A stretch of DNA of 56,833 nucleotides from an uncultured virus (IMG/VR IMGVR_UViG_3300045125_000114) (lineage: Duplodnaviria > Heunggongvirae > Uroviricota > Caudoviricetes), in the IMG/VR virus record IMGVR_UViG_3300045125_000114; one strand, 5' to 3'. The first letter of the stretch is position 1; every line of letters begins with the position of its first letter. The notes beneath the pieces were generated by a model. It saw only the letters and a program-made list of their open reading frames with translations. It was not told where the DNA came from and did not search any database. Shown here one piece after another: positions 3,471-48,476 of the stretch. The translations under genes were made by a program, and so were the position numbers.

Positions 3471-3937
3471 TCACGGTTCGTAAACTACAACTCGGATGTC
3501 CGACCAATGGAGGTCGTGTACTCGTTGAATTTCGGCCCTAACTTGATACCAGTTCAATCCGCCTAACCCGCATCCCAACGGTGGAATGGCGATGGAAGTG
3601 ATTCCCTTTCCTTAATTTCTTCCACCAGATTTTGCAGCCCGCAAATGATCCAGTCCATTTGCGACGGCTGCTTCCAGTGAGTCTTTGGTCGGAAAATTGA
3701 CAACGTATACCGGGCGGGCCTTGTCGTCTCTGCGAGATTCGGGGTTCTTCCATATGTGCATCTGACCGGTTTTACTTCTCTCTTCCTACAAGCGTTCTTG
3801 TAGGCGTTGAACATATGGGGGAACTTGTTCTTGAACAACAGAGCCAAGCCCTTGCCCATCTTGCCGTAGCAGTTGACGGTGTTGACAAGGGCTTGGCAGT
3901 CCGATTCCAGTATGTCGCCTTTGACGAACTCAATCAT
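3471..3937 (-). CDS. Macrodomain ADP-ribosyl hydrolase, DarG-like (frameshifted)
   Basis: MIEFVKGDILESDCQALVNTVNCYGKMGKGLALLFKNKFP...NFPTK(D)HWKQPSQMDWI..GL...SIAIPPLGCGLGGLNW, the DarG-type macro signature. Confidence 0.88.
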
Positions 3938-4239
3938 TACTCGTACCTTGAAGTGTCTTGATCCTTTTCCATCTTCAACTCTTTTTTGACAATTCTCTGA
4001 GTTGCGGCAAGGATGCGGCCGTGAAGCTCCCAATTTCGGTCTTGGCCGTTTAGCGGCGGAATGTACCACGGCTTGTGCAGAGCGGACATCACCATTTCCA
4101 CACGGGCCAGTTCTGCCGCCGACTGAATCAGTTCCTCGTGCCCATTGAAATCGGGATCGTCAGCAGCCGCCGACAAGTGACTCGTACACATTGTAGCAAA
4201 CGGCAAAATCAAAAGAAAATCTCCTTGTAAGCCATTTCA

Positions 4240-5815: not shown

Positions 5816-6372
5816 TCACGCCACATGATGGTTCGTACCTGCGGCTTGATCGGAACAATGATTTTCCGTGGTGAGCCTCGTGACTGCGGAAACCACCCAT
5901 GATTCATCCCTGAGTTCCTGACGGATTTTCATCCACAACATGCCGAGCATGTTTTGGCCGAACCAAGTCCCGTCGTCACGTCGGGCAGCGCCCCAAAAAG
6001 CCGCACGCTCTTTTCCGCTGCGTGCGGTCACGTCTTCGACAATCGGCTCGTCGCCGGTTGCGATTAGTTGCTCTTTGAGCGAGGGGTGTTGCTCGATCTT
6101 GAGACGAAGGACAAACTCCATGTTATCGAGGTCTTGAGCAGACATCGGCTCGACAGTCATTTCGGAAGCGTGCGCCTTCGCCTTCATTTTGGCGCTCATG
6201 GGCGAACGCTCGGCCCGTATCTCTTCCTGAACCTTCTCGTTCTCGTGGAATCGCAAGGCTTGGAACAGGTGTTCGGCCGTCTTCCAAGTCTTTCCTTGGC
6301 AGAAAATGGGGAACGGAGCCATGTTCCCAACCACCCGAATGGGGCACGCACTTTTGTGAAAGCAATTGTCAT
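5816..6372 (-). CDS. NADAR (YbiA/DUF1768) family protein
   Basis: MTIAFTKVRAPFGWL(G)NM..FPI....WKTAEHLFQALRF...SPMSAK...KIEQHPSLKEQLIATGDEPIVED...FWG...GQNMLGMLWMKIR. Confidence 0.88.
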
Positions 6373-6377
6373 GGCCG

Positions 6378-6406
6378 ATTCTACCTCGAATTCGGTGGGT
6401 TGTAAA
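6378..6406 (-). promoter_or_regulatory. Sigma70-like promoter, probably leaderless, for NADAR
   Basis: TTTACA-N17-TAGAAT, then 5 nt and ATG. Confidence 0.6.
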
Positions 6407-6418
6407 GTACATACCCAC

Positions 6419-17478: not shown

Positions 17479-17912
17479 ATGCAAAACTTCTGGACGTGGC
17501 TCGAAAGCGCCGAACCCCACCCGACTGCTGCCGTGATCGTACTCAAAGACGGAAAGGCTTTGATTTTACGGCGAGGAATGACCGCACCTTGGATGCCCGG
17601 CAAATGGAACCTGCCGGGGGCGGAATCGAAGAGGGCGAATCACCACAACTTGCGGCCGTTCGTGAGTGCGAAGAAGAGGCCGGACTTACACCGACCGGCG
17701 TGACTTTTTACAAGAAAGTCTACGATCCGGGATTTACTTTGTATTTGTTCAAAGGCAAAACGACCCAAGAGCCGCACATCGACTTTGAAAGTGATGGCTA
17801 CGCTTGGGTCGCACTTCAAGATTTGAAACATTACCAATTCGTGCCTCACGTTGGCGAAGCACTGGCGTCTGTGTTATCGCAGACAGATGTAGGTTACAAG
17901 GCCGACAACTAA
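17479..17912 (+). CDS. NUDIX hydrolase in opposite orientation (frameshifted)
   Basis: WNLPGGGIEEGESPQLAAVRECEEEAG Nudix box; N-terminus MQNFWTWLES; preceded by CTAAATA. Confidence 0.85.
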
Positions 17913-25978: not shown

Positions 25979-27017
25979 TTACGCTACCTTTCGCTGGGCA
26001 CACACGAACCTTCTCGTGTGCGTTCTTGAGGGCGATTGCCGTCCACATGCGAGTGTACGGTTCTCCGGTGTTGGGGTTGAGCGTGTTTCGGGCCACGTCA
26101 GCCTGCCACCCGTAGTAAGGGTTGAGCGAAGTTTCCAGCACCTTCCGCTCGAAATCGGTCAGGTCGGCGCAGCTCGATGGCGTCACGCGAACGCTGACGA
26201 TTGTGGCGGTGCGATCCGCCCGCTCGACATTGCGTAGAGCGGTGTAGTCGTTGGGCACGTCAGTCGCTCGAAGCACCGACGCCAGCCCCAAAGGTTGTTG
26301 TGGCCGGTGATCTGCGATTCGGTGTAGACCTTCGCCATGATGGTAGACAACGACTTGTACTGTTCGTCGCTCAACCCCATCCGCTCACAAACTTGGTCGA
26401 AAGTCACTCGGTCGTTGAACGACTTGCGAGTATCCTCGAATTTCGCCAACAGCATCGAAAGGTCGGGATTCGTCAGAGGGCACGGCGGGTTGTTGCCGTT
26501 CGTTGACGTAAATCATCCGATTGTTGCAGGGTCGCCCAAGCGAACGATGTGAACTTGACGCCGAAACTGTCGTTGCCCGTAGATTGCGTCCAACAAGGGC
26601 GATGTACGCCTCGTTGTTGTAATCTCCCAGCGACATGCCGCTGCCCGGTTCGTTCTGGCAGAACCAGCGGCGAGCGTGTTTGCGGGCGAGACGGCCGAGA
26701 ACCCACAGAGCATTGCGTACTCGACGGTTCGGTTGTCCAGTTCGGTCAGTTCGTCCATGTGGATCGAAATGATGAACTTGCGGCTTCTTGGCGGAAATCT
26801 TGCAGCTTTTCGGCGGGGACAGAAGCTTCAAGATCGGACGCGTACCTTGCGGTCACGAACGCCCTTGAACAGTTTGCTTGCGGAACTCTCGTGCCTTGCA
26901 GATCACCGAGGATAAGCAGGCCCACTTCGCCAACAGGCCGTTCGCCTTCACGATTTTTTCGAGGCGGGCTTCTTCTTGCTTCTTCGTCAGCTTGACGTAG
27001 GGGACCATGTCCGTCAT
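25979..27017 (-). CDS. Sigma-70 family RNA polymerase sigma factor (multiply frameshifted)
   Basis: Joined frames: LTKKQEEARL (region 1.2-like), LARKHARRW...MSLGDYNNEAYIALLDAIYG.DSFGVKFTSFAW (region 2), TFDQVCERMGLS (region 3), LTDFERKVL...QADVAR (region 4); GGAG SD. Confidence 0.75.
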
Positions 27018-31416: not shown

Positions 31417-32109
31417 ATGGAACGAGTCAGCATCACAAGTGGTAAGCAACCGATCCTTATTGTTTCTCCACACGGGTATAAGAACGACGACGAAAATACC
31501 GCAACAGTCGCCGAAGCAATTGCGAGCGTTTTGAATTGCTACGCCGTAATCAATCGAGGATGGGAACGGGCCGATGACGTTGACATTTTCAACGACAAAG
31601 CCGACTTGCAACAACGTCTCGCACTGCCACGAAGATGTTGTAAAGGACGAGTTCCTTGATCCCATCCTTCGATTCCGGGCAAGAATACTGAAGCGGTACA
31701 CCAAAGTTCATATGTACCTCATTCACGGGATGTCGGACAAGCACCGCATCAAAGCCAACGATCCGAGCCTCGATATTGTTGTAGGCTACGGTGCTGGCAG
31801 TCCAGATTCCTACTCTTGCGACCCGTGGCGAAAAGACGCATTCATCAATCTGCTAAAAGATAACGGGCTGTGCGCCTACGAAGGCAAAAAGGGCGGGCAG
31901 ATGAGCGGTTGGGCGAAAAACAACATGAACCAACTGTTCAGAAAATGGTACACCGACCCGGCAGTTCAGTCCATGCAAATCGAAATTGTTCACGAACTTC
32001 GAGCCGACAACGACACTGCCCAGCTTACCGCTGAATATCTGGCCGTAGCCATGAGCGATATGCTGGGCAAACCGGTTATAACGGAAACAACCGCAACAAA
32101 CAGTATTAA
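31417..32109 (+). CDS. N-formylglutamate amidohydrolase-like protein (frameshifted)
   Basis: PILIVSPHG, YLIHGM, DIVVGYG, SMQIEI pattern. Confidence 0.55.
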
Positions 32110-32813: not shown

Positions 32814-33290
32814 CTATTCGGCTTTCAATCTCTTGGCCCAAATTTTCACCCTTTCGGCCAAATCCTTCAAGGAGTAGGAAATCTCAGGATTCCAAGGACG
32901 ACCCAAGCCCAACTGAACCTCCAAATCAATTTTTCGCTTGTAATCCGGGTGACACCCAACGAACAAAGGATCGGCCCGCTCGCAAAACTTCCCCAACTCG
33001 AACAAGGTAATGGGGCAGAGAGTTTCGTGAGGGAACCAAAACAACCGTGCCGCCGAGAGTCGGAGATACTTATATTCCCACTTGATTTGTTGTTCGGTCA
33101 TAGTGGGGTCAGTGATGTCGAAATTATCCCGGCGAGGGTTGATTAAAACTAAATCAGTGTCCTTGAGCAGTTCTACCATCTCAGGCTGCCATTGAGGACA
33201 GCTAGAAATGCCGCCGCCCAAGAACAGCATGTCATCTCGGATGTTGCCGTTCTTGAAGTCGTATTCGTCGGGACAGCGAATCTCTTTCAT
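32814..33290 (-). CDS. Nucleoside 2-deoxyribosyltransferase-like protein
   Basis: LFLGGGISSCPQWQ...INPRR.....QQIKWE..L.....FWFP.ETLCPITLFELG. Confidence 0.8.
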   Translation of the reverse strand: MKEIRCPDEYDFKNGNIRDDMLFLGGGISSCPQWQPEMVELLKDTDLVLINPRRDNFDITDPTMTEQQIKWEYKYLRLSAARLFWFPHETLCPITLFELGKFCERADPLFVGCHPDYKRKIDLEVQLGLGRPWNPEISYSLKDLAERVKIWAKRLKAE

Positions 33291-34607
33291 ACCTGCTCCA
33301 GTCGGAACATGCCAAGCGTCCACATGCAGCGTTGCAAGATGGTGTTGGCGTGATTGATGGCGTATTGGAACCCGTAACGACCGTCGTTGATCTTTTCTTT
33401 ATGATAAGCTTTGCCCAAACGACGGGCAAGGTCGTGGGCGAAGTTAGCCATTTGAGTGGAGTCCATAGTTTCGACACAACGTTTGTGGTAAAACGTAAAG
33501 TAATTGGCGAAACCAATCAGGTCTGCATCGTCTTGGGTCAGATCGTAGTAAGGGTCCGGGTGTTTCTTGCTTTCCCACGGAGACGTTTCCTCGTCTCCGA
33601 AACCCAACTTCATCGCCTTCATCGTGTGAGGCGGGAAGTGATACCAGCTTTTCCCCGCGCCGCCTTTTTGACACGGGCGAAAGTGTAGGTGATGTAAAGC
33701 CCCGGAGCGTCGGCCTTTGTCCAGTCGGCCGGATTGTACTTTACATTTTGTGTACGAGCGACGGTCAAGAAGTTCCACGCCAGTACGTTCCACGCCAACT
33801 TTCGCTTGTCGGGGCACGAATCTTCCAGATTCTCCATCACTTCTTCCATGATGGCTTCTGCTTTCGGCGAATCAGCGGGCACACCTTCTTTGCTGGCACG
33901 GGACTTCAACTTTTTACCATCAGAACCCAACACCAACCCCATTGGCAGGTGCTTGTCGCCCAGACCCAAAGAGGCAAAGTGTTCTTTCTGTTCCGCTCCG
34001 GTAATGTAATGTGTAGGTCCGACAAGCTTTGCGAAGGCCAAATCGTGGAAAGCGTACAACGGCGATCCGTCGTATCGCTTGACTTTTTACCGGGCCGTTC
34101 GGACCTTCCCAAACCCACGGCAGTTCGTGTTCTTCTAACAGCAACGTGTTGGTGTCGTCTTTGTAACCTTGGCGACGGCACTCCACCAAGTCACGAGGCA
34201 TCAACACGTCGTAATACAGTTCCGGCTTGAAGTCGAGAAACTCGAACCACTTTTCTAGGGCGTCTGGTTGAAGTCTTGTAGACGCCCTGACTGGCTCCGA
34301 GCAACGAAACGAAACTGATCTTTTCGCCGCTGTCCCCGCCGTATTTCAACAGGCACTTCAACGAATTTGCTACTGCCAGTTGGGCGCAAGTGCCCGGCAT
34401 GAAGCTCTTTGTTGAGGTTGGGAGAAAACCCGTCAATGACGTAATTGTTTTCTACTTGAAACCATTCGGGCCAGTCTTGACACTCTGGCGTGACGTAGTA
34501 ATTCCAAATGCGACCAACGTTCACCTCACGGTAACGTTTGGCGTAGTCGGGCAACTGCTCGTTGGAGAAAATCCAACGCCGTGTGGACCGGTGATGGGAC
34601 GGATCAT
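33287..34607 (-). CDS. argS: Arginyl-tRNA synthetase-like protein, shortened (frameshifted)
   Basis: IDGFSPNLNKELHAGHLR (HIGH), KRYDGSPLYAFHDLA, YITGAEQKEHF, GLVLGSDGKKLKSR (KMSKS-like), APGLYITYTFARV, DALR-like C-terminus ANFAHDLARRLGKAY...LGMFRLEQV. Confidence 0.82.
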
Positions 34608-35110
34608 GGGAGTCTCAGAGATAACGCCATTTCTGGAAGAATAACATTTCTACATTCGATGCGGTATCGGGGCCAGTTGTCCCAACACCATTTTTCGGCA
34701 TTGTCAGGGTCGTCAACGAACTTCTGACGGGCTTCTTGTTTGAACACGTCGAAATCGGCCAATCTCTGGTGTCTTCTTGGGTCAAACGGTGTGTACCAAC
34801 CGTTCCCGTGGTTGACTTCCCAATAGTAATCGTAGGTGCAAGCGGTAAGGACATATTCTTCGGGAAAAAGCGTTCTCCTGCCGCCTAGCCAAGTAGCAAC
34901 ACATCGGTGGTGGCCGTCGTGAATGTACCTGCGGCCGTCCTCGAACTCACGGATTTGAATGAGTGGCGATGGTTTCTTTAGTTTTTCTTTCTTGCAGTAA
35001 ACCTGTAGAGTACTCGATTGTCCACCGACCGCCACTATGAACGTGTTCGATCATTTCGGGCAGCGTGTCCCAATGACGCAGGGTACATTGGGTTACGAAA
35101 CCGTTTTCAA
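34604..35110 (-). CDS. ParB/sulfiredoxin N-terminal-like protein
   Basis: PLIQI..FEDGRRYIHDGHHRCVA; start uncertain. Confidence 0.5.
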
Positions 35111-35369
35111 CTCAAGCACGGAGCTACCCATCTTTCTGTCGCAACAAAGATTGTGGTATGCTCACTCACTTCCGTGTCAGACAACTTACAGACCACTTTG
35201 TTTTTGAAAGACAACAGCGGCTCCAAATGTACGCCCTTGCGAATACAGGCAACGTATTTTGGGCCGGATCGACCGAATCGTATATCGACTTACCGATAAG
35301 CTCGGAACCCGCCCGCCAAATGCCGATGTCGTATACCGTTTGAACCGAATCTGCGGGCAGCTTCTTTTC

Positions 35370-38826: not shown

Positions 38827-39169
38827 TTAGGCAACCGGAGACAGTTGAAGCGACGGAACAGGTGCCGACGGTCCCCGAAAATCGGTTCCGTGGCAAAAGC
38901 CCGTTAGTTGGTTGTCTCGGTCGGGTTCGATGAAAGGAACACACTCCACGCCCAAACCCCGGATTTTCTCCAGAGTACGGTGAAGTTTTTGTTCGTGGTC
39001 GATACCGACGACCACAAGATGAGGGTGATCGAGGTGTTGTGGAATTAGACCCTTACGGGCCAGTTCGATGCCAGCGTGTGCGGTTTGAACGACGATCTGT
39101 TCGACGGGCAAATCTTTTGCGAACAAAGATGTAAACGTGGTTGACAGTGTCAGAAATCTAGTGAGTCAT
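38827..39169 (-). CDS. Peptidyl-tRNA hydrolase II-like protein with an in-frame amber (TAG) at codon 4
   Basis: ATG ACT CAC TAG ATT TCT GAC ACT GTC AAC CAC GTT TAC ATC TTT GTT CGC AAA = MTH*ISDTVNHVYIFVRK; after a 1-nt A-run slip it continues DLPVEQIVVQTAHA...HLVVV...FIEPDRDNQLT, a Pth2-like pattern. Confidence 0.75.
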
Positions 39170-44094: not shown

Positions 44095-46195
44095 GATTAT
44101 TCCTCTTTGAGCCGATGAATTTAGTTGTTTGGACAAACCTGTTACTTGTCCTTAATTCGGTATCCGTAAACGTAGTAGTTGTAGCCGTTGCTCACGTTCA
44201 CGCCGCCCATAACGTGACGGAGTTCGACATCCTTGCCGTAGTACAGACTCAGATACAACTGAATCCATTCGGGCGTAAAACCCTTCACCTTTTCATCTGC
44301 CGCCTTGCGAGCAGCCTCGGCCTTCTTGTAGTCCCACTCTTGTAGGCGATCACTGTAGTCGTAACTCAGACCCTTTTCTTCGGCGCCCCAGACTGTGCGT
44401 GCCTCGTTCCAATACGAATTGCTGTAGTGGATGTATGGGAACAGTGGCCTTCATGTTGTGGTTGACGAAAGCGGGGCAGTTGTCCAGTCCTTCAAGTTCG
44501 TAGCCGCCGAAGTCGTTGAAATGAACACGGGTCTTAGCCACTTTATTCGTCCCTTCCGATAACTTTGTTGTAATTCTCTACGGCTTTAAGGTGCGGCTTT
44601 TAGGGTCTGTGGGTTGGGATCGGCGAGGAAAGCCTTATATGCCTCGACCTTGAGATTCAAAGCGTGCAGAATCTTCTTGTCTTCTTCGGTCGGTTTTTCG
44701 TCGGGTCCGAACCAGAACATGACATTTCCTCGCAAAGATACTACCTCACAAAATGTGGGTTGTATACCGATCAAATCGGAATGCTTCTGTCTATTTTCAT
44801 CTCAAGTTCTTCGTACTTAGACAACAAACTAGGCAAGCGAGTGATTGGAGCATCAATCCGCTTCTCGGTTGATGGAATACCCATCAAATCTGCGATTGAG
44901 TACCCGTGTCCGTCCCAATTTTTCAAGAGAACGTTTTTCCTCTTTAAGATCGGACCATTCCTTTGCACCGCCGTGAGAGCCGTGGATGCCGTGAATCGGG
45001 AATAAAACGTAATGAGGCATCGACCAATACAAATCAAGAACTGTTCCCAACAAAGTGTTGGGCTTCTTGAAAATTACGCCCGTCCCAATCGTGATCCGTA
45101 CAAACAGACACTATCTCCACACTCGGTAGGACTGTAAAACATCGTGTCCGACAGAGCACGTGAGTGGCTTGTTGTGGAAAAACAGTCTCAGTGACATCAT
45201 CGGCTGCCCGTAGTACAAAAAGCCGCCGGGCTTCCTGTAATACTACCACAAAAGTATAGTACGGATACCATACTGTGGCGATATATGGGCGTAACGTGGT
45301 ACTGTCCTTGAGACAATAAATGGAACGGCGTTCAGGCTCGCTACTATTGATGGAAAGACAACGACCTTTATCGTAGGTGTTGTCAAGATCGAGATTTGTG
45401 ATATCGCAGATTCATTGCGACCTCAAAAACGCCTCAGTTTGGAGGGACAGTCGTCGTAATTCAGAACCACACTCTCGTCAGGCTTGGCACGAGCAACTTT
45501 CTTCTGTCCCCACGCCACGATAGCAGCTTTCCATCGGCGAAAATACAAAATCGCCTCTTGAGCCGACTCATACCGACATTGACTGTAGAAATGATCGGTT
45601 TTTAGACGAGTTCATCGGCTGATACTGCCACCACAGCCCGTTCTTGTTCGGGCAAAAGTTGTGACGGAGAATGGCCCAGCGGTCGGGGCCACCGTCGGGA
45701 TTGCCCATGTTCTTGACCGTAACCATCGTCGGCTTGTCGTCAAACGGCTTTCAGGCGGATCAAGAAAGCCTACCGGAAACGATAGGCTCTGGTCCCACGT
45801 TGAATTCGCACGCCATTTCTAACAGTTCGGCGTCTGTAACTTTTTCCATGTCAATCACCAGCGAGTTTGGACTTCAACCACTCGTCGTTTTTCTTCTTTC
45901 GCTCTGGCGTCCACCACGAGCGAAAGTCTGTTCACACTTGTGACGACTCTTTCCACAACTCTCTTCTGCTGAAATGTCTACGAGTAGATTTTGCCACTGC
46001 GCCTCTTCTTGATGTCGGTCGCCTGTCCGAGACAGGGACAGAATCTTGTCGAAGCCATCCGTGTAGGAAACGTCTTTTTCAAGCACCGTTCCGTCTTTGG
46101 TAAGATCATAAAGAACGGTGTAGGTTTCGTCCCTTCTTGCCGACGGTCGAAAGGCGATAAAGTAGCCATTTTTCTCTCTGTTAAAAAAGAAACAG

Positions 46196-46266
46196 CGTCC
46201 CGTGCAGGAGTTGAACCCGCTTCTTCCGGGTTAGAGCCGGAGGCACAGCCGATATACCAACGGGAC
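46196..46266 (-). tRNA. Amber suppressor-type tRNA, anticodon CUA (Glu-like acceptor stem)
   Basis: GTCCCGT-TG-GTAT-ATCGGCT-GTGC-C-TCCGG-CTCTAAC-CCGGA-AGAA-GCGGG-TTCAACT-CCTGC-ACGGGAC-G; complete cloverleaf, CCA not encoded. Confidence 0.85.
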
Positions 46267-46270
46267 AAAA

Positions 46271-46347
46271 TGCCCTCACCGGGATTTGAACCCGGACTGA
46301 CGAGAGTTTTAGAGACCCGCGCACTACCGTTGTGCTGCTAAGAGGAT
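46271..46347 (-). tRNA. Second tRNA with CUA anticodon (Trp-like anticodon arm; imperfect)
   Basis: D arm GCAC-AACGGTA-GTGC, anticodon arm CGGGT-CTCTAAA-ACTC, T arm CCGGG-TTCAAAT-CCCGG. Acceptor pairs 5 of 7; small duplications may be read errors. Confidence 0.65.
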
Positions 46348-46351
46348 CGAA

Positions 46352-46420
46352 ACAGCGTCGGGGATCGAACCCGATTTTTCACTACTCCCGTAGTTACTAC
46401 CGCCCATCCGCAGCGTGCCG
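46352..46420 (-). pseudogene. Degenerate tRNA-like element (T arm only)
   Basis: TCGGG-TTCGATC-CCCGA T arm and the same trailer CGCTGTTTC as tRNA 1; no acceptor or anticodon arm recognisable. Confidence 0.4.
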
Positions 46421-47327: not shown

Positions 47328-47815
47328 TCAGATTCCCAGACCCGGCTCGAACGTGCCTCGTGCGTTTCGGTAAGACTCGATCAAATTGATCGGCATCCAA
47401 GAGGCACACTCTCAGACCCTTCGACCAACTTTTTCAACTCGTCAAACGTCACCCACTGCCAGCCCTCACACTTGTCCGGTTCGGCATTGACCGGCTCGCC
47501 GCTGACCCAATTGGCCGCAAGGAAAATGGTGATATAATGCTTCCTGTACTGAGGCATTATGTCGTTTGTGACAAACCATTCCAACCGATTCTTGTTGAAA
47601 AATTGGAAAGAAACCTTGAAGTCAGGGCCGCACTCTTCTTCGAGTTCACGGTGCCCACAGTCCAACAGAGTTTCCCCAAAATCAAGGTGCCCGCCGGGGG
47701 AAAGAAAACAGGCCGGAAGCGCGTGCCGCTCGCGACGACCGACAAGCACTTTGCCGTCCTTGACTACGATGATGCCGGTTCCGACACGGACTTGAGGTGC
47801 GAAAGCAATTTCCAT
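47328..47815 (-). CDS. NUDIX hydrolase, NUDT15/MutT-like (frameshifted)
   Basis: VRVGTGIIVVKDGKVLVGRR...PGGHLDFGETLLDCGHRELEEECG...HYITIF...EPDKCEGWQW. Confidence 0.88.
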
Positions 47816-47821
47816 TTTTGT

Positions 47822-48476
47822 TCCATCACAGGGGTTTGAATTCGATCCCATCGAGATGAGGGACCATGTCTTTGATCTTGTAACCGAAACAGAACAGCGG
47901 GATGAAATCAACCGCACCTTTCATCGAATCCTTCCAAAGTTCAAAACGGGCAGAATCGTGGCTCTGCGTAGAAAACACTCTGCCAATAACCCGAAACCTA
48001 CTGCGTCTGCCAGTTGCGGGAGTGTCTTGTAAGAAGGCTCAACAGAGTTGCCCATGCAGACGTTCAGGTACTCGCCTTCGTAATTTCCAAGAGGCAGAGC
48101 GTGGAGTGTAGCTTTTGGATCGTTCGGGCAATCAAGGCTGAAAACCGATCTGCGTGTTGAAATAAACGAATCTGGTCGTGTGTTTTTCGTGTACTATCCC
48201 GTATCGCACGATGAAAGTTGTATACGGAAATTCGAGACGAACGAAAGCCGGAGACTCGGTGCCTCGAACCTTAACCTGTATAGTTCTAGTTTGAGGCTTT
48301 TGAGTCAAAACCAGATAGTTGATAGAACTCATGCAGCCACGATCTTCCATGCCGTACCGCTGGTAATTGCAGCGTACACCCTTGGCTATATCCGCTCGCA
48401 TCGCTTTCGGTCTGCGAATCAGCCGGACGAAAAAACGTGTGAGCGGATTATACCTGAGCCAGTGTAAAATACTCAT
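47822..48476 (-). CDS. Hypothetical protein, weak resemblance to prokaryotic E2 family D
   Basis: RLEFPYTTFIV...LHALPLGNY...NVCMG pattern; frameshifted. Confidence 0.35.

Follow-up and report, generated by a model that had tools for sequence, protein, structure and literature searches.

Within the 56,833-nucleotide stretch of the uncultured virus IMGVR_UViG_3300045125_000114 (hereafter the window, meaning this whole stretch), the minus strand carries a gene resembling that for arginyl-tRNA synthetase (ArgRS) but shortened at the very part by which this enzyme is known, ArgRS being the synthetase defined by an extra N-terminal domain that reads the D-loop of the tRNA. The question raised by this locus is what such a protein does in a phage, and which tRNAs it serves. 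An initial annotation had regarded it as a reduced ArgRS with an altered C-terminus, possibly an orthogonal synthetase for two nearby tRNAs with the anticodon CUA. We consider it probable that the gene encodes a working, stripped-down ArgRS of a very large tailed phage, which would serve tRNA-Arg as part of the phage's own translation kit. The gene is located as follows:

33287..34607, minus strand: ArgRS-like gene (about 439 codons), its frame broken five times in the window sequence; delineated by tblastn and contig comparison

The gene runs from an ATG at 34607-34605 to a TGA at 33289-33287, spanning 1321 nt. With translation table 11, the region is split into open reading frame (ORF) pieces of 99, 81, 146 and 176 amino acids in differing frames, and reading TAG as sense did not join them. 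Tracing with intact relatives by tblastn followed the gene through frames -3, -2, -3, -1, -2 and -1, the correct frame of each piece being free of stops and identity to relative P0001 being 64-79% in the well-aligned pieces. Because the 146-residue piece by itself matched 200 proteins at E <= 0.001 (best 1e-65), the gene, as judged by homology, is not a chance ORF. The region 33200-34700 was then compared with short-read Logan contigs from four other public runs; nine pieces aligned, seven being at least 99% alike and two 95-99% alike to the window. The five breaks, with the corresponding differences in the contigs of runs X1 to X3, are given below:

34567, in a T run of the coding strand: frame break 1; one extra base in the contigs of X1 and X3
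34382 (near 34383): frame break 2; one base fewer in the contigs of X2 and X3
34265: frame break 3; one base fewer in the contig of X1
34083..34088, beside an A5 run (around 34085): frame break 4; outside contig coverage
33658..33660 (range near 33650-33660): frame break 5; two bases fewer in the contig of X2, at 33658 and 33660

Indels in the contigs coincided with four of the five breaks, the segment holding the remaining one (33914-34117) being uncovered. When the contig differences were applied by script, the frame from the ATG stayed open for 228 codons, vs. 28 before, and a further open run of 265 codons ended at the ArgRS stop. Since independent contigs at least 95% identical to the window carry single-base indels that reopen the frame at four of the five sites, the frame breaks are assembly errors, four of them checked in this way; and since the contig-derived changes reopen the frame, the real gene specifies a protein of about 438-439 residues, with 69 residues ahead of the sequence HAGH and with the end MFRLEQV. 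The length of about 440 codons and the terminal LEQV given in the initial annotation were thereby borne out, as was its short N-terminus, though not its count of about 60 residues before the HIGH motif.

Both sequence profiles and fold point to ArgRS. The PF00750 domain was found in all five intact relatives examined at 24.5-45.4 bits (cut-off 23.3), the HIGH fragment of the window scoring 19.2 bits alone, and PF05746 (DALR) was found in four of the five at E <= 0.01, two of them above the 22.3-bit cut-off. Against the PDB, the family profile (A1) retrieved ArgRS only (12/12 distinct sequences, E 3e-19 to 4e-7); within NCBIfam, the argS models alone matched the family; and hhalign against E. 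coli ArgS returned a probability of 97.3%, over family residues 169-388 only. An AlphaFold (AF2) model of relative P0003, built from an alignment of 37 sequences, had a predicted local distance difference test score (pLDDT) of 93 and a predicted template modelling score (pTM) of 0.91. The best 16 Foldseek entries for this model were all ArgRS, and VIA-align gave ArgRS Z scores of 22.4-28.4 over 338-393 residues (root-mean-square deviation 2.9-3.4), as compared with at most 21.2 for cysteinyl-tRNA synthetase (CysRS) and 19.3 for methionyl-tRNA synthetase, with the fold alignment reaching the end of the ArgRS chains. The parts of the protein, all on the minus strand, map to the window as follows:

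34443..34607, minus strand: N-terminal module of about 55 residues, four short beta strands, at the place of Add1; boundary approximate
34390..34401, minus strand: HIGH motif, reading HAGH; DGFSPNLNK ahead of it holds the equivalent of E. coli D118 and the upstream lysine
33898..33915, minus strand: KMSKS-like motif KKLKSR
33290..33650, minus strand: C-terminal helical anticodon-binding part (DALR-like, Add2), ending LEQV

In ArgRS, which as a rule requires tRNA for the activation of arginine, a lysine upstream of HIGH compensates for the KMSKS motif. Twelve residues of the compact protein, this lysine among them, are invariant in 37/37 relatives (D59, N64, K67, H70, G72, H73, Y176, D180, E197, Q198, K224 and S227), while K226 and R228 of the KMSKS-like motif are present in 33 and 35 of them. 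A hidden Markov model alignment to 4OBY, whose chain is numbered +1, places D59, Y176 and D180 on D118, Y313 and D317 of the E. coli enzyme, where, according to Table 1 of PMC3956977, the substitutions D118A and D317A eliminate the binding of arginine, which Y313A reduces. The invariant residues are held in the window by the pieces IDGFSPNLNKELHAGHLR, LYAFHDLAF, TGAEQKEHF and GKKLKSR, and the first motif reads NLNKELHAGH. Because the residues of pocket and motifs are invariant in all 37 relatives and present in the window, there is good evidence at the level of sequence that the compact protein would bind arginine and ATP.

The N-terminus and the core insertions have fared differently. In E. 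coli ArgRS, as delimited in PMC3956977 and PMC8975779, Add1 covers residues 1-112, Ins1 164-221, Ins2 258-311 and Add2 383-577, and the pocket for A20 of canonical ArgRS sits in Add1. The 37 relatives have 60-88 residues (median 71) ahead of HIGH, and in the P0003 model only four short strands precede the Rossmann fold. This small module is conserved in its own right, with Y37 and T40 invariant and G10, G12, F13, Y26, G32, N36, W46 and P47 nearly so. Folded alone (pLDDT 86.6), its 61 residues found a best Z of 2.3 among 48,161 chains, none of the matches being an ArgRS; on this modelling the N-terminal module appears to have no recognised fold, a Z of 2.3 does not establish novelty, and a remote remnant of Add1 is conceivable. 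The distance from HIGH to KKLKSR is about 150 residues, vs. about 250 in E. coli ArgRS, and because it is shorter by about 100 residues, Ins1 and Ins2 are trimmed in the compact family, in agreement with the short connective region seen earlier.

The intact relatives, at 385-460 amino acids, make up a distinct family: the 37 sequences align end to end with 50% mean column identity, start with MIRPIP..GVGF and end with LGMFxLExV/I. Among the best 120 matches of the 146-residue piece, 119 are 268-463 amino acids long, although proteins of up to 2000 amino acids were eligible. When 1.84 billion representatives were searched exhaustively with the profile, 114 proteins had E <= 1e-30; the family is set apart from canonical ArgRS by gaps in score, with full-length members (380-470 amino acids) scoring above 300 bits and ArgRS of canonical length (550-590 amino acids) starting at about 1e-27, save for one exception at 7e-35. 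Proteins of this family without Add1 span at least 60 clusters at 50% identity. In IMG/VR they are on contigs of 65-533 kb, the large tailed-phage records that carry them being 340-533 kb, and a search of 185,579 prokaryote species (one genome each) recovered a single close match, on a 10-kb contig of a metagenome-assembled genome (MAG), and seven distant ones. Very large phages are almost the only carriers of the compact ArgRS family. A scan of viral contigs with a single protein found no relative, and the alignment-based scan found them. The search of GenBank phage proteins returned two 635-kb uncultured phages only (residues 17-301, 27-29% identity), PHROGs gave only a weak match to an unnamed family of 592 positions, and a DNA search with 33000-35000 against 50,697 phage records gave no match. 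Labels of the sequencing runs (activated sludge, wastewater, freshwater) had word shares of at most 0.24 and were not used to assign a habitat.

Two further sets of proteins came to light in these searches. A second group of compact ArgRS-like proteins (390-420 amino acids; L008, L009, L034-L040; P0185-P0230) matches only profile positions 2-300 and carries PF00750 and sometimes DALR; its members are found on viral contigs (L009 has 19 tRNAs in 21 kb), on MAG contigs of up to 522 kb and in the two 635-kb phages. Longer proteins contain the compact ArgRS module as one part, namely P0146 (1077 amino acids), P0071 (1660 amino acids, filed under a dinoflagellate assembly and also bearing an ADP-ribosylglycohydrolase domain) and P0153 (573 amino acids); these may be fusions or artefacts of gene models.

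What the compact protein might charge is best judged from the genomes of its relatives, G001 to G005. The locus L001 belongs to G001, a record of 532,729 bp rated 100% complete that is syntenic with the window over 25-41 kb and has its intact compact ArgRS gene at L001 9995-11290. A phage terminase gene (Terminase_6N) is present in G001 and G003, and a search for the nucleocytovirus capsid family had no match, its control likewise having matched nothing anywhere. The number of tRNA matches was 59 in G001, 55 in G002, 33 in G003 and 62 in G004, with none in G005, a 94-kb fragment. In the parts of these records that were fetched, ARAGORN, the sole source of our cloverleaf parses, called six tRNA-Arg genes in G001, three in G002, four in G003 and one in G004, and the six of the syntenic G001 have all six tRNA-Arg anticodons. 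In 13/13 parsed tRNA-Arg genes, an A, which we read as position 20, follows the GG of the D-loop. G001 also encodes synthetases of the GluRS/GlnRS type (glutamyl/glutaminyl), four of class IIb type and one of the Trp/TyrRS type (tryptophanyl/tyrosyl). Each of the five records has one ArgRS-like gene and no canonical one.

Taken with the fold and the conserved pocket, these data are consistent with a gene that belongs to a phage translation kit, which in close relatives extends to dozens of tRNA genes and to several further synthetases. The enzyme has retained its class I core for catalysis as well as the arginine pocket and the helical domain that binds the anticodon, and we surmise that it would activate arginine and attach it to tRNA-Arg, the substrates being the phage's own isoacceptors and probably those of the host as well. 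Add1 and much of the two core insertions have been lost, with the small conserved beta module, now in the place of Add1, probably contributing to tRNA binding. On the sequences at hand, the compact enzyme most likely charges ordinary arginine tRNAs and not the nearby suppressors. A family that drops Add1 yet keeps every catalytic residue amounts to a natural experiment on the minimal protein for selecting tRNA-Arg; should it indeed charge arginine tRNAs, we would be aware of no more compact ArgRS, and it would show how megaphages build their own translation supply.

Several observations weigh against such an assignment. The relatives were found by way of their ArgRS gene, so that its presence in all five records is by construction. 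The window itself has no tRNA-Arg gene, its only tRNAs within 56.8 kb being the two with anticodon CUA. PF03485, the Add1 domain with the A20 pocket, was not found at E <= 0.1 in any of the five intact relatives, and the last residue, M577 in E. coli ArgRS (PMC3956977), is V in 29 and I in 8 of the 37 relatives, never M, with the window ending in V; the loss of both N-terminal domain and C-terminal Met had been foreseen by the initial annotation, and the contig-corrected frame did not restore a normal N-terminal domain. Identity to solved ArgRS is just 14-18%. Lastly, the five relatives reached 49.3-81.4 bits with TIGR00456, vs. a cut-off of 261.65 and 728.2 for the E. coli ArgS control; because the argS models match but do so far under this cut-off, the compact protein is, by its profile scores, an ArgRS homologue well outside the curated argS equivalog.

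Comparison with known systems helps to put these features in place. Like E. coli ArgS (577 amino acids; PDB 4OBY, 5B63 and 5YYM), the compact family has a class I Rossmann core with HIGH, a KMSKS-like motif and the upstream lysine, equivalents of the D118/Y313/D317 pocket and a helical Add2/DALR anticodon-binding domain, and canonical bacterial ArgRS is its best structural match (Z 28.4, 385 residues aligned). It differs in being about 140-190 residues shorter, with Add1 replaced by the beta module of about 55 residues, Ins1 and Ins2 trimmed, and V or I instead of M577. CysRS (1LI5, 3TQO), a compact class Ia enzyme of similar size and layout that also does without an N-terminal tRNA-binding domain, ranks second among the fold matches, with Z reaching 21.2 over the model from residue 48 on; unlike CysRS, the compact family has profiles that match ArgRS only and pocket residues of the ArgRS type. 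In its genomic setting, the family is the same as the huge-phage synthetases of Al-Shayeb et al. 2020 (PMC7162821), whose phage genomes measure several hundred kb and encode tens of tRNAs together with a number of synthetases; these synthetases were proposed to act on tRNA variants of the phages themselves. The supplement to that paper holds arginine--tRNA ligase hits and an arginine tree, with at least two TIGR00456 rows at 310 and 223 bits, the former from a phage genome and the latter from a genome named R2_PLASMID_CIR_59_76, as compared with 49-81 bits for the compact family. A precedent for an ArgRS that works without reading A20, in an anticodon-dependent manner, is the mitochondrial-type and diatom ArgRS described by Igloi 2022 (PMC8975779); as portrayed there, these enzymes have a full-length N-terminal domain with an altered pocket, whereas in the compact family the domain is gone. 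Compared with that ArgRS, indifferent to nucleotide 20, the phage tRNA-Arg genes keep A20 though the compact enzyme is without Add1. A search of full-text literature found no paper describing a phage ArgRS lacking Add1.

One may ask whether the enzyme serves all arginine tRNAs or only unusual ones. In a dedicated pair, the enzyme would have co-evolved with atypical phage tRNA-Arg and would serve these selectively, yielding arginine decoding insulated from the host, with a benefit such as independence from limiting host ArgRS or from nucleases attacking host tRNA-Arg. U8 is near-universal in tRNAs. All six tRNA-Arg genes of G001 (L010 11811-12916; L011 4557-7570) are without it, five having G and one A, and over the four genomes U8 is absent from 7/12 parsed tRNA-Arg, vs. 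9/113 other tRNAs. Also in keeping with such a pair are the loss of Add1, the conserved module of no recognised fold that stands in its stead and the near confinement of the family to phage contigs. However, the tRNA-Arg genes of G003 and G004 have an ordinary U8 in the presence of the same enzyme, and with A20 kept, host ArgRS could still read the phage tRNA-Arg. We thus hold a dedicated pair to be unlikely, albeit worth retaining as an alternative. The related idea, in which the beta module takes over from Add1 as a new means of recognising tRNA and reads an altered tRNA core within a host-insulated pair, is, in our view, equally tentative. If selectivity for the odd phage tRNA-Arg were true, the two would provide a small orthogonal pair for engineering, acting on arginine codons and not on UAG. 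Several G001 tRNA-Arg genes also have a G at the first position of the D-loop in the ARAGORN cloverleaf. Nearby in L010 (13184-13278) lies a tRNA-like gene of 95 nt, to which ARAGORN assigns either '???' with an anticodon of four bases (cttg) or Lys|Gln; this gene may hold an intron.

Rather than translation, Arg-tRNA or Arg-AMP might be used as a donor in modifying DNA, nucleotides or protein, or the protein might be a regulator. The genes adjoining that for the compact ArgRS bear on this possibility:

34604..35035, minus strand: upstream ORF of 143 amino acids without a family match; its TGA overlaps the ArgRS ATG (ATGA); orthologue at L001 8172-8750
32814..33290, minus strand: nucleoside 2-deoxyribosyltransferase-like gene (PF15891) on the downstream side; start codon (ATG, 33290-33288) overlapping the TGA of ArgRS

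These three genes are joined by ATGA start/stop overlaps (34604-34607 and 33287-33290), an arrangement that would favour a non-translational use, as would scores under the argS equivalog cut-off and the precedent of phage Mu Mom, which, according to PMC13219725, modifies DNA with Gly-tRNA. The flanking genes, however, are common only to L001 and partly to L006, not being conserved in L002-L005 or L007, and in L001 two additional ORFs sit between the orthologues of the 143-residue ORF, ArgRS and the deoxyribosyltransferase-like gene. Given this limited sharing, the neighbours were dropped as a functional clue. In addition, the whole tRNA-binding architecture, the anticodon-binding domain included, is kept, the co-occurring large tRNA sets and other synthetases fit translation, and no transferase partner was identified. 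A role outside translation is accordingly improbable in our judgement.

The proposal that had drawn attention to this locus was that, without its readers of A20 and C35, the enzyme charges CUA suppressor tRNAs with arginine, forming an orthogonal pair at UAG. The tRNA genes in question, shown for context only, are as follows:

46195..46346, minus strand: two adjacent tRNA genes with anticodon CUA, 11.6 kb from the ArgRS gene

In its favour are the absence of Add1 and of the C-terminal Met, the location of the two CUA tRNAs 11.6 kb off with the pair conserved at the syntenic place in G001 (L014 4394-4541), and the co-occurrence of the enzyme with at least one CUA tRNA in three of the four large relatives, as counted by ARAGORN in the fetched parts of the records (3, 1, 0 and 1 in G001 to G004). 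Yet G003 has the enzyme and no CUA tRNA in its scanned parts, in which 36 tRNAs were called, vs. 33 matches over the whole record. Nor do the CUA tRNAs resemble arginine tRNAs: all carry U35, so that the C35 of tRNA-Arg is missing along with A20; the five that could be parsed have C or U, not A, after the D-loop GG, the unparsed sixth reading GGT by eye; and their nearest kin among 200 phage tRNAs are of Lys/Asn, Val/Thr/Glu or Leu type, not Arg. The anticodon-binding domain is kept and conserved, and complete tRNA-Arg sets, with tRNA-Arg genes in all four large relatives, offer an obvious substrate.

The use of UAG codons in the relatives also speaks against this proposal. In 120 kb of G001 including the terminase, code 11 gives 94% coding with ORFs of up to 2048 amino acids, and TAG ends 23 of the 145 ORFs, coverage rising by 0.5 points when TAG is taken as sense. 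Judged by these frames, the standard code, TAG being a stop, holds in G001, the nearest relative; the tRNA-rich parts of G001-G004 gave a similar standard-code picture, and the parts of these four examined showed no sign of need for a UAG-decoding synthetase. Within the window, stops are spread evenly over all six frames; stop-codon statistics there are uninformative on recoding because the noise of indels is indistinguishable from it. An orthogonal UAG pair is therefore very improbable. While the structural premise of the initial annotation was right, its link to the suppressor tRNAs is not supported, and the proximity of suppressor tRNAs on the DNA does not in itself argue for a functional pair. 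G001 has a third CUA tRNA, with a long arm and Leu-like (L015 15737-15827), though it keeps the standard code. Upstream of the two CUA tRNAs in the window lies a T-arm-like stretch, GGGTTCGATCCCCGA (46347-46400, minus strand), that was called by neither ARAGORN nor Rfam and might represent a third tRNA, disrupted by an indel of the assembly.

A decaying pseudogene, inactive in this phage through five genuine frameshifts, is hardly credible: the breaks do stand in the window sequence and that at 34083-34088 is outside independent contig coverage, but four of the five are contradicted by contigs 95-99% or more alike that reopen the frame once applied, no piece has a stop in its correct frame, all invariant residues are kept, and other genes of the window are split likewise over at least two frames as compared with intact L001 orthologues (34616-35111, 31417-32071, 38829-39111 and 26004-27017), the longest stop-free run in 56.8 kb being 466 codons, vs. 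ORFs of 2048 amino acids in the relative.

The window is accordingly an indel-laden assembly in which any frameshift or apparent pseudogene is to be distrusted. Its other recognisable genes are of the Macro, NADAR, NUDIX (two), ArdC-N, DUF6011, Bax-inhibitor-like and AlgH-like families, and this gene content fits a large phage. The Macro, NADAR and two NUDIX genes are located on the minus strand at 3563-4069, 5816-6418, 17496-17912 and 47381-47917, a set that suggests handling of ADP-ribose or NAD.

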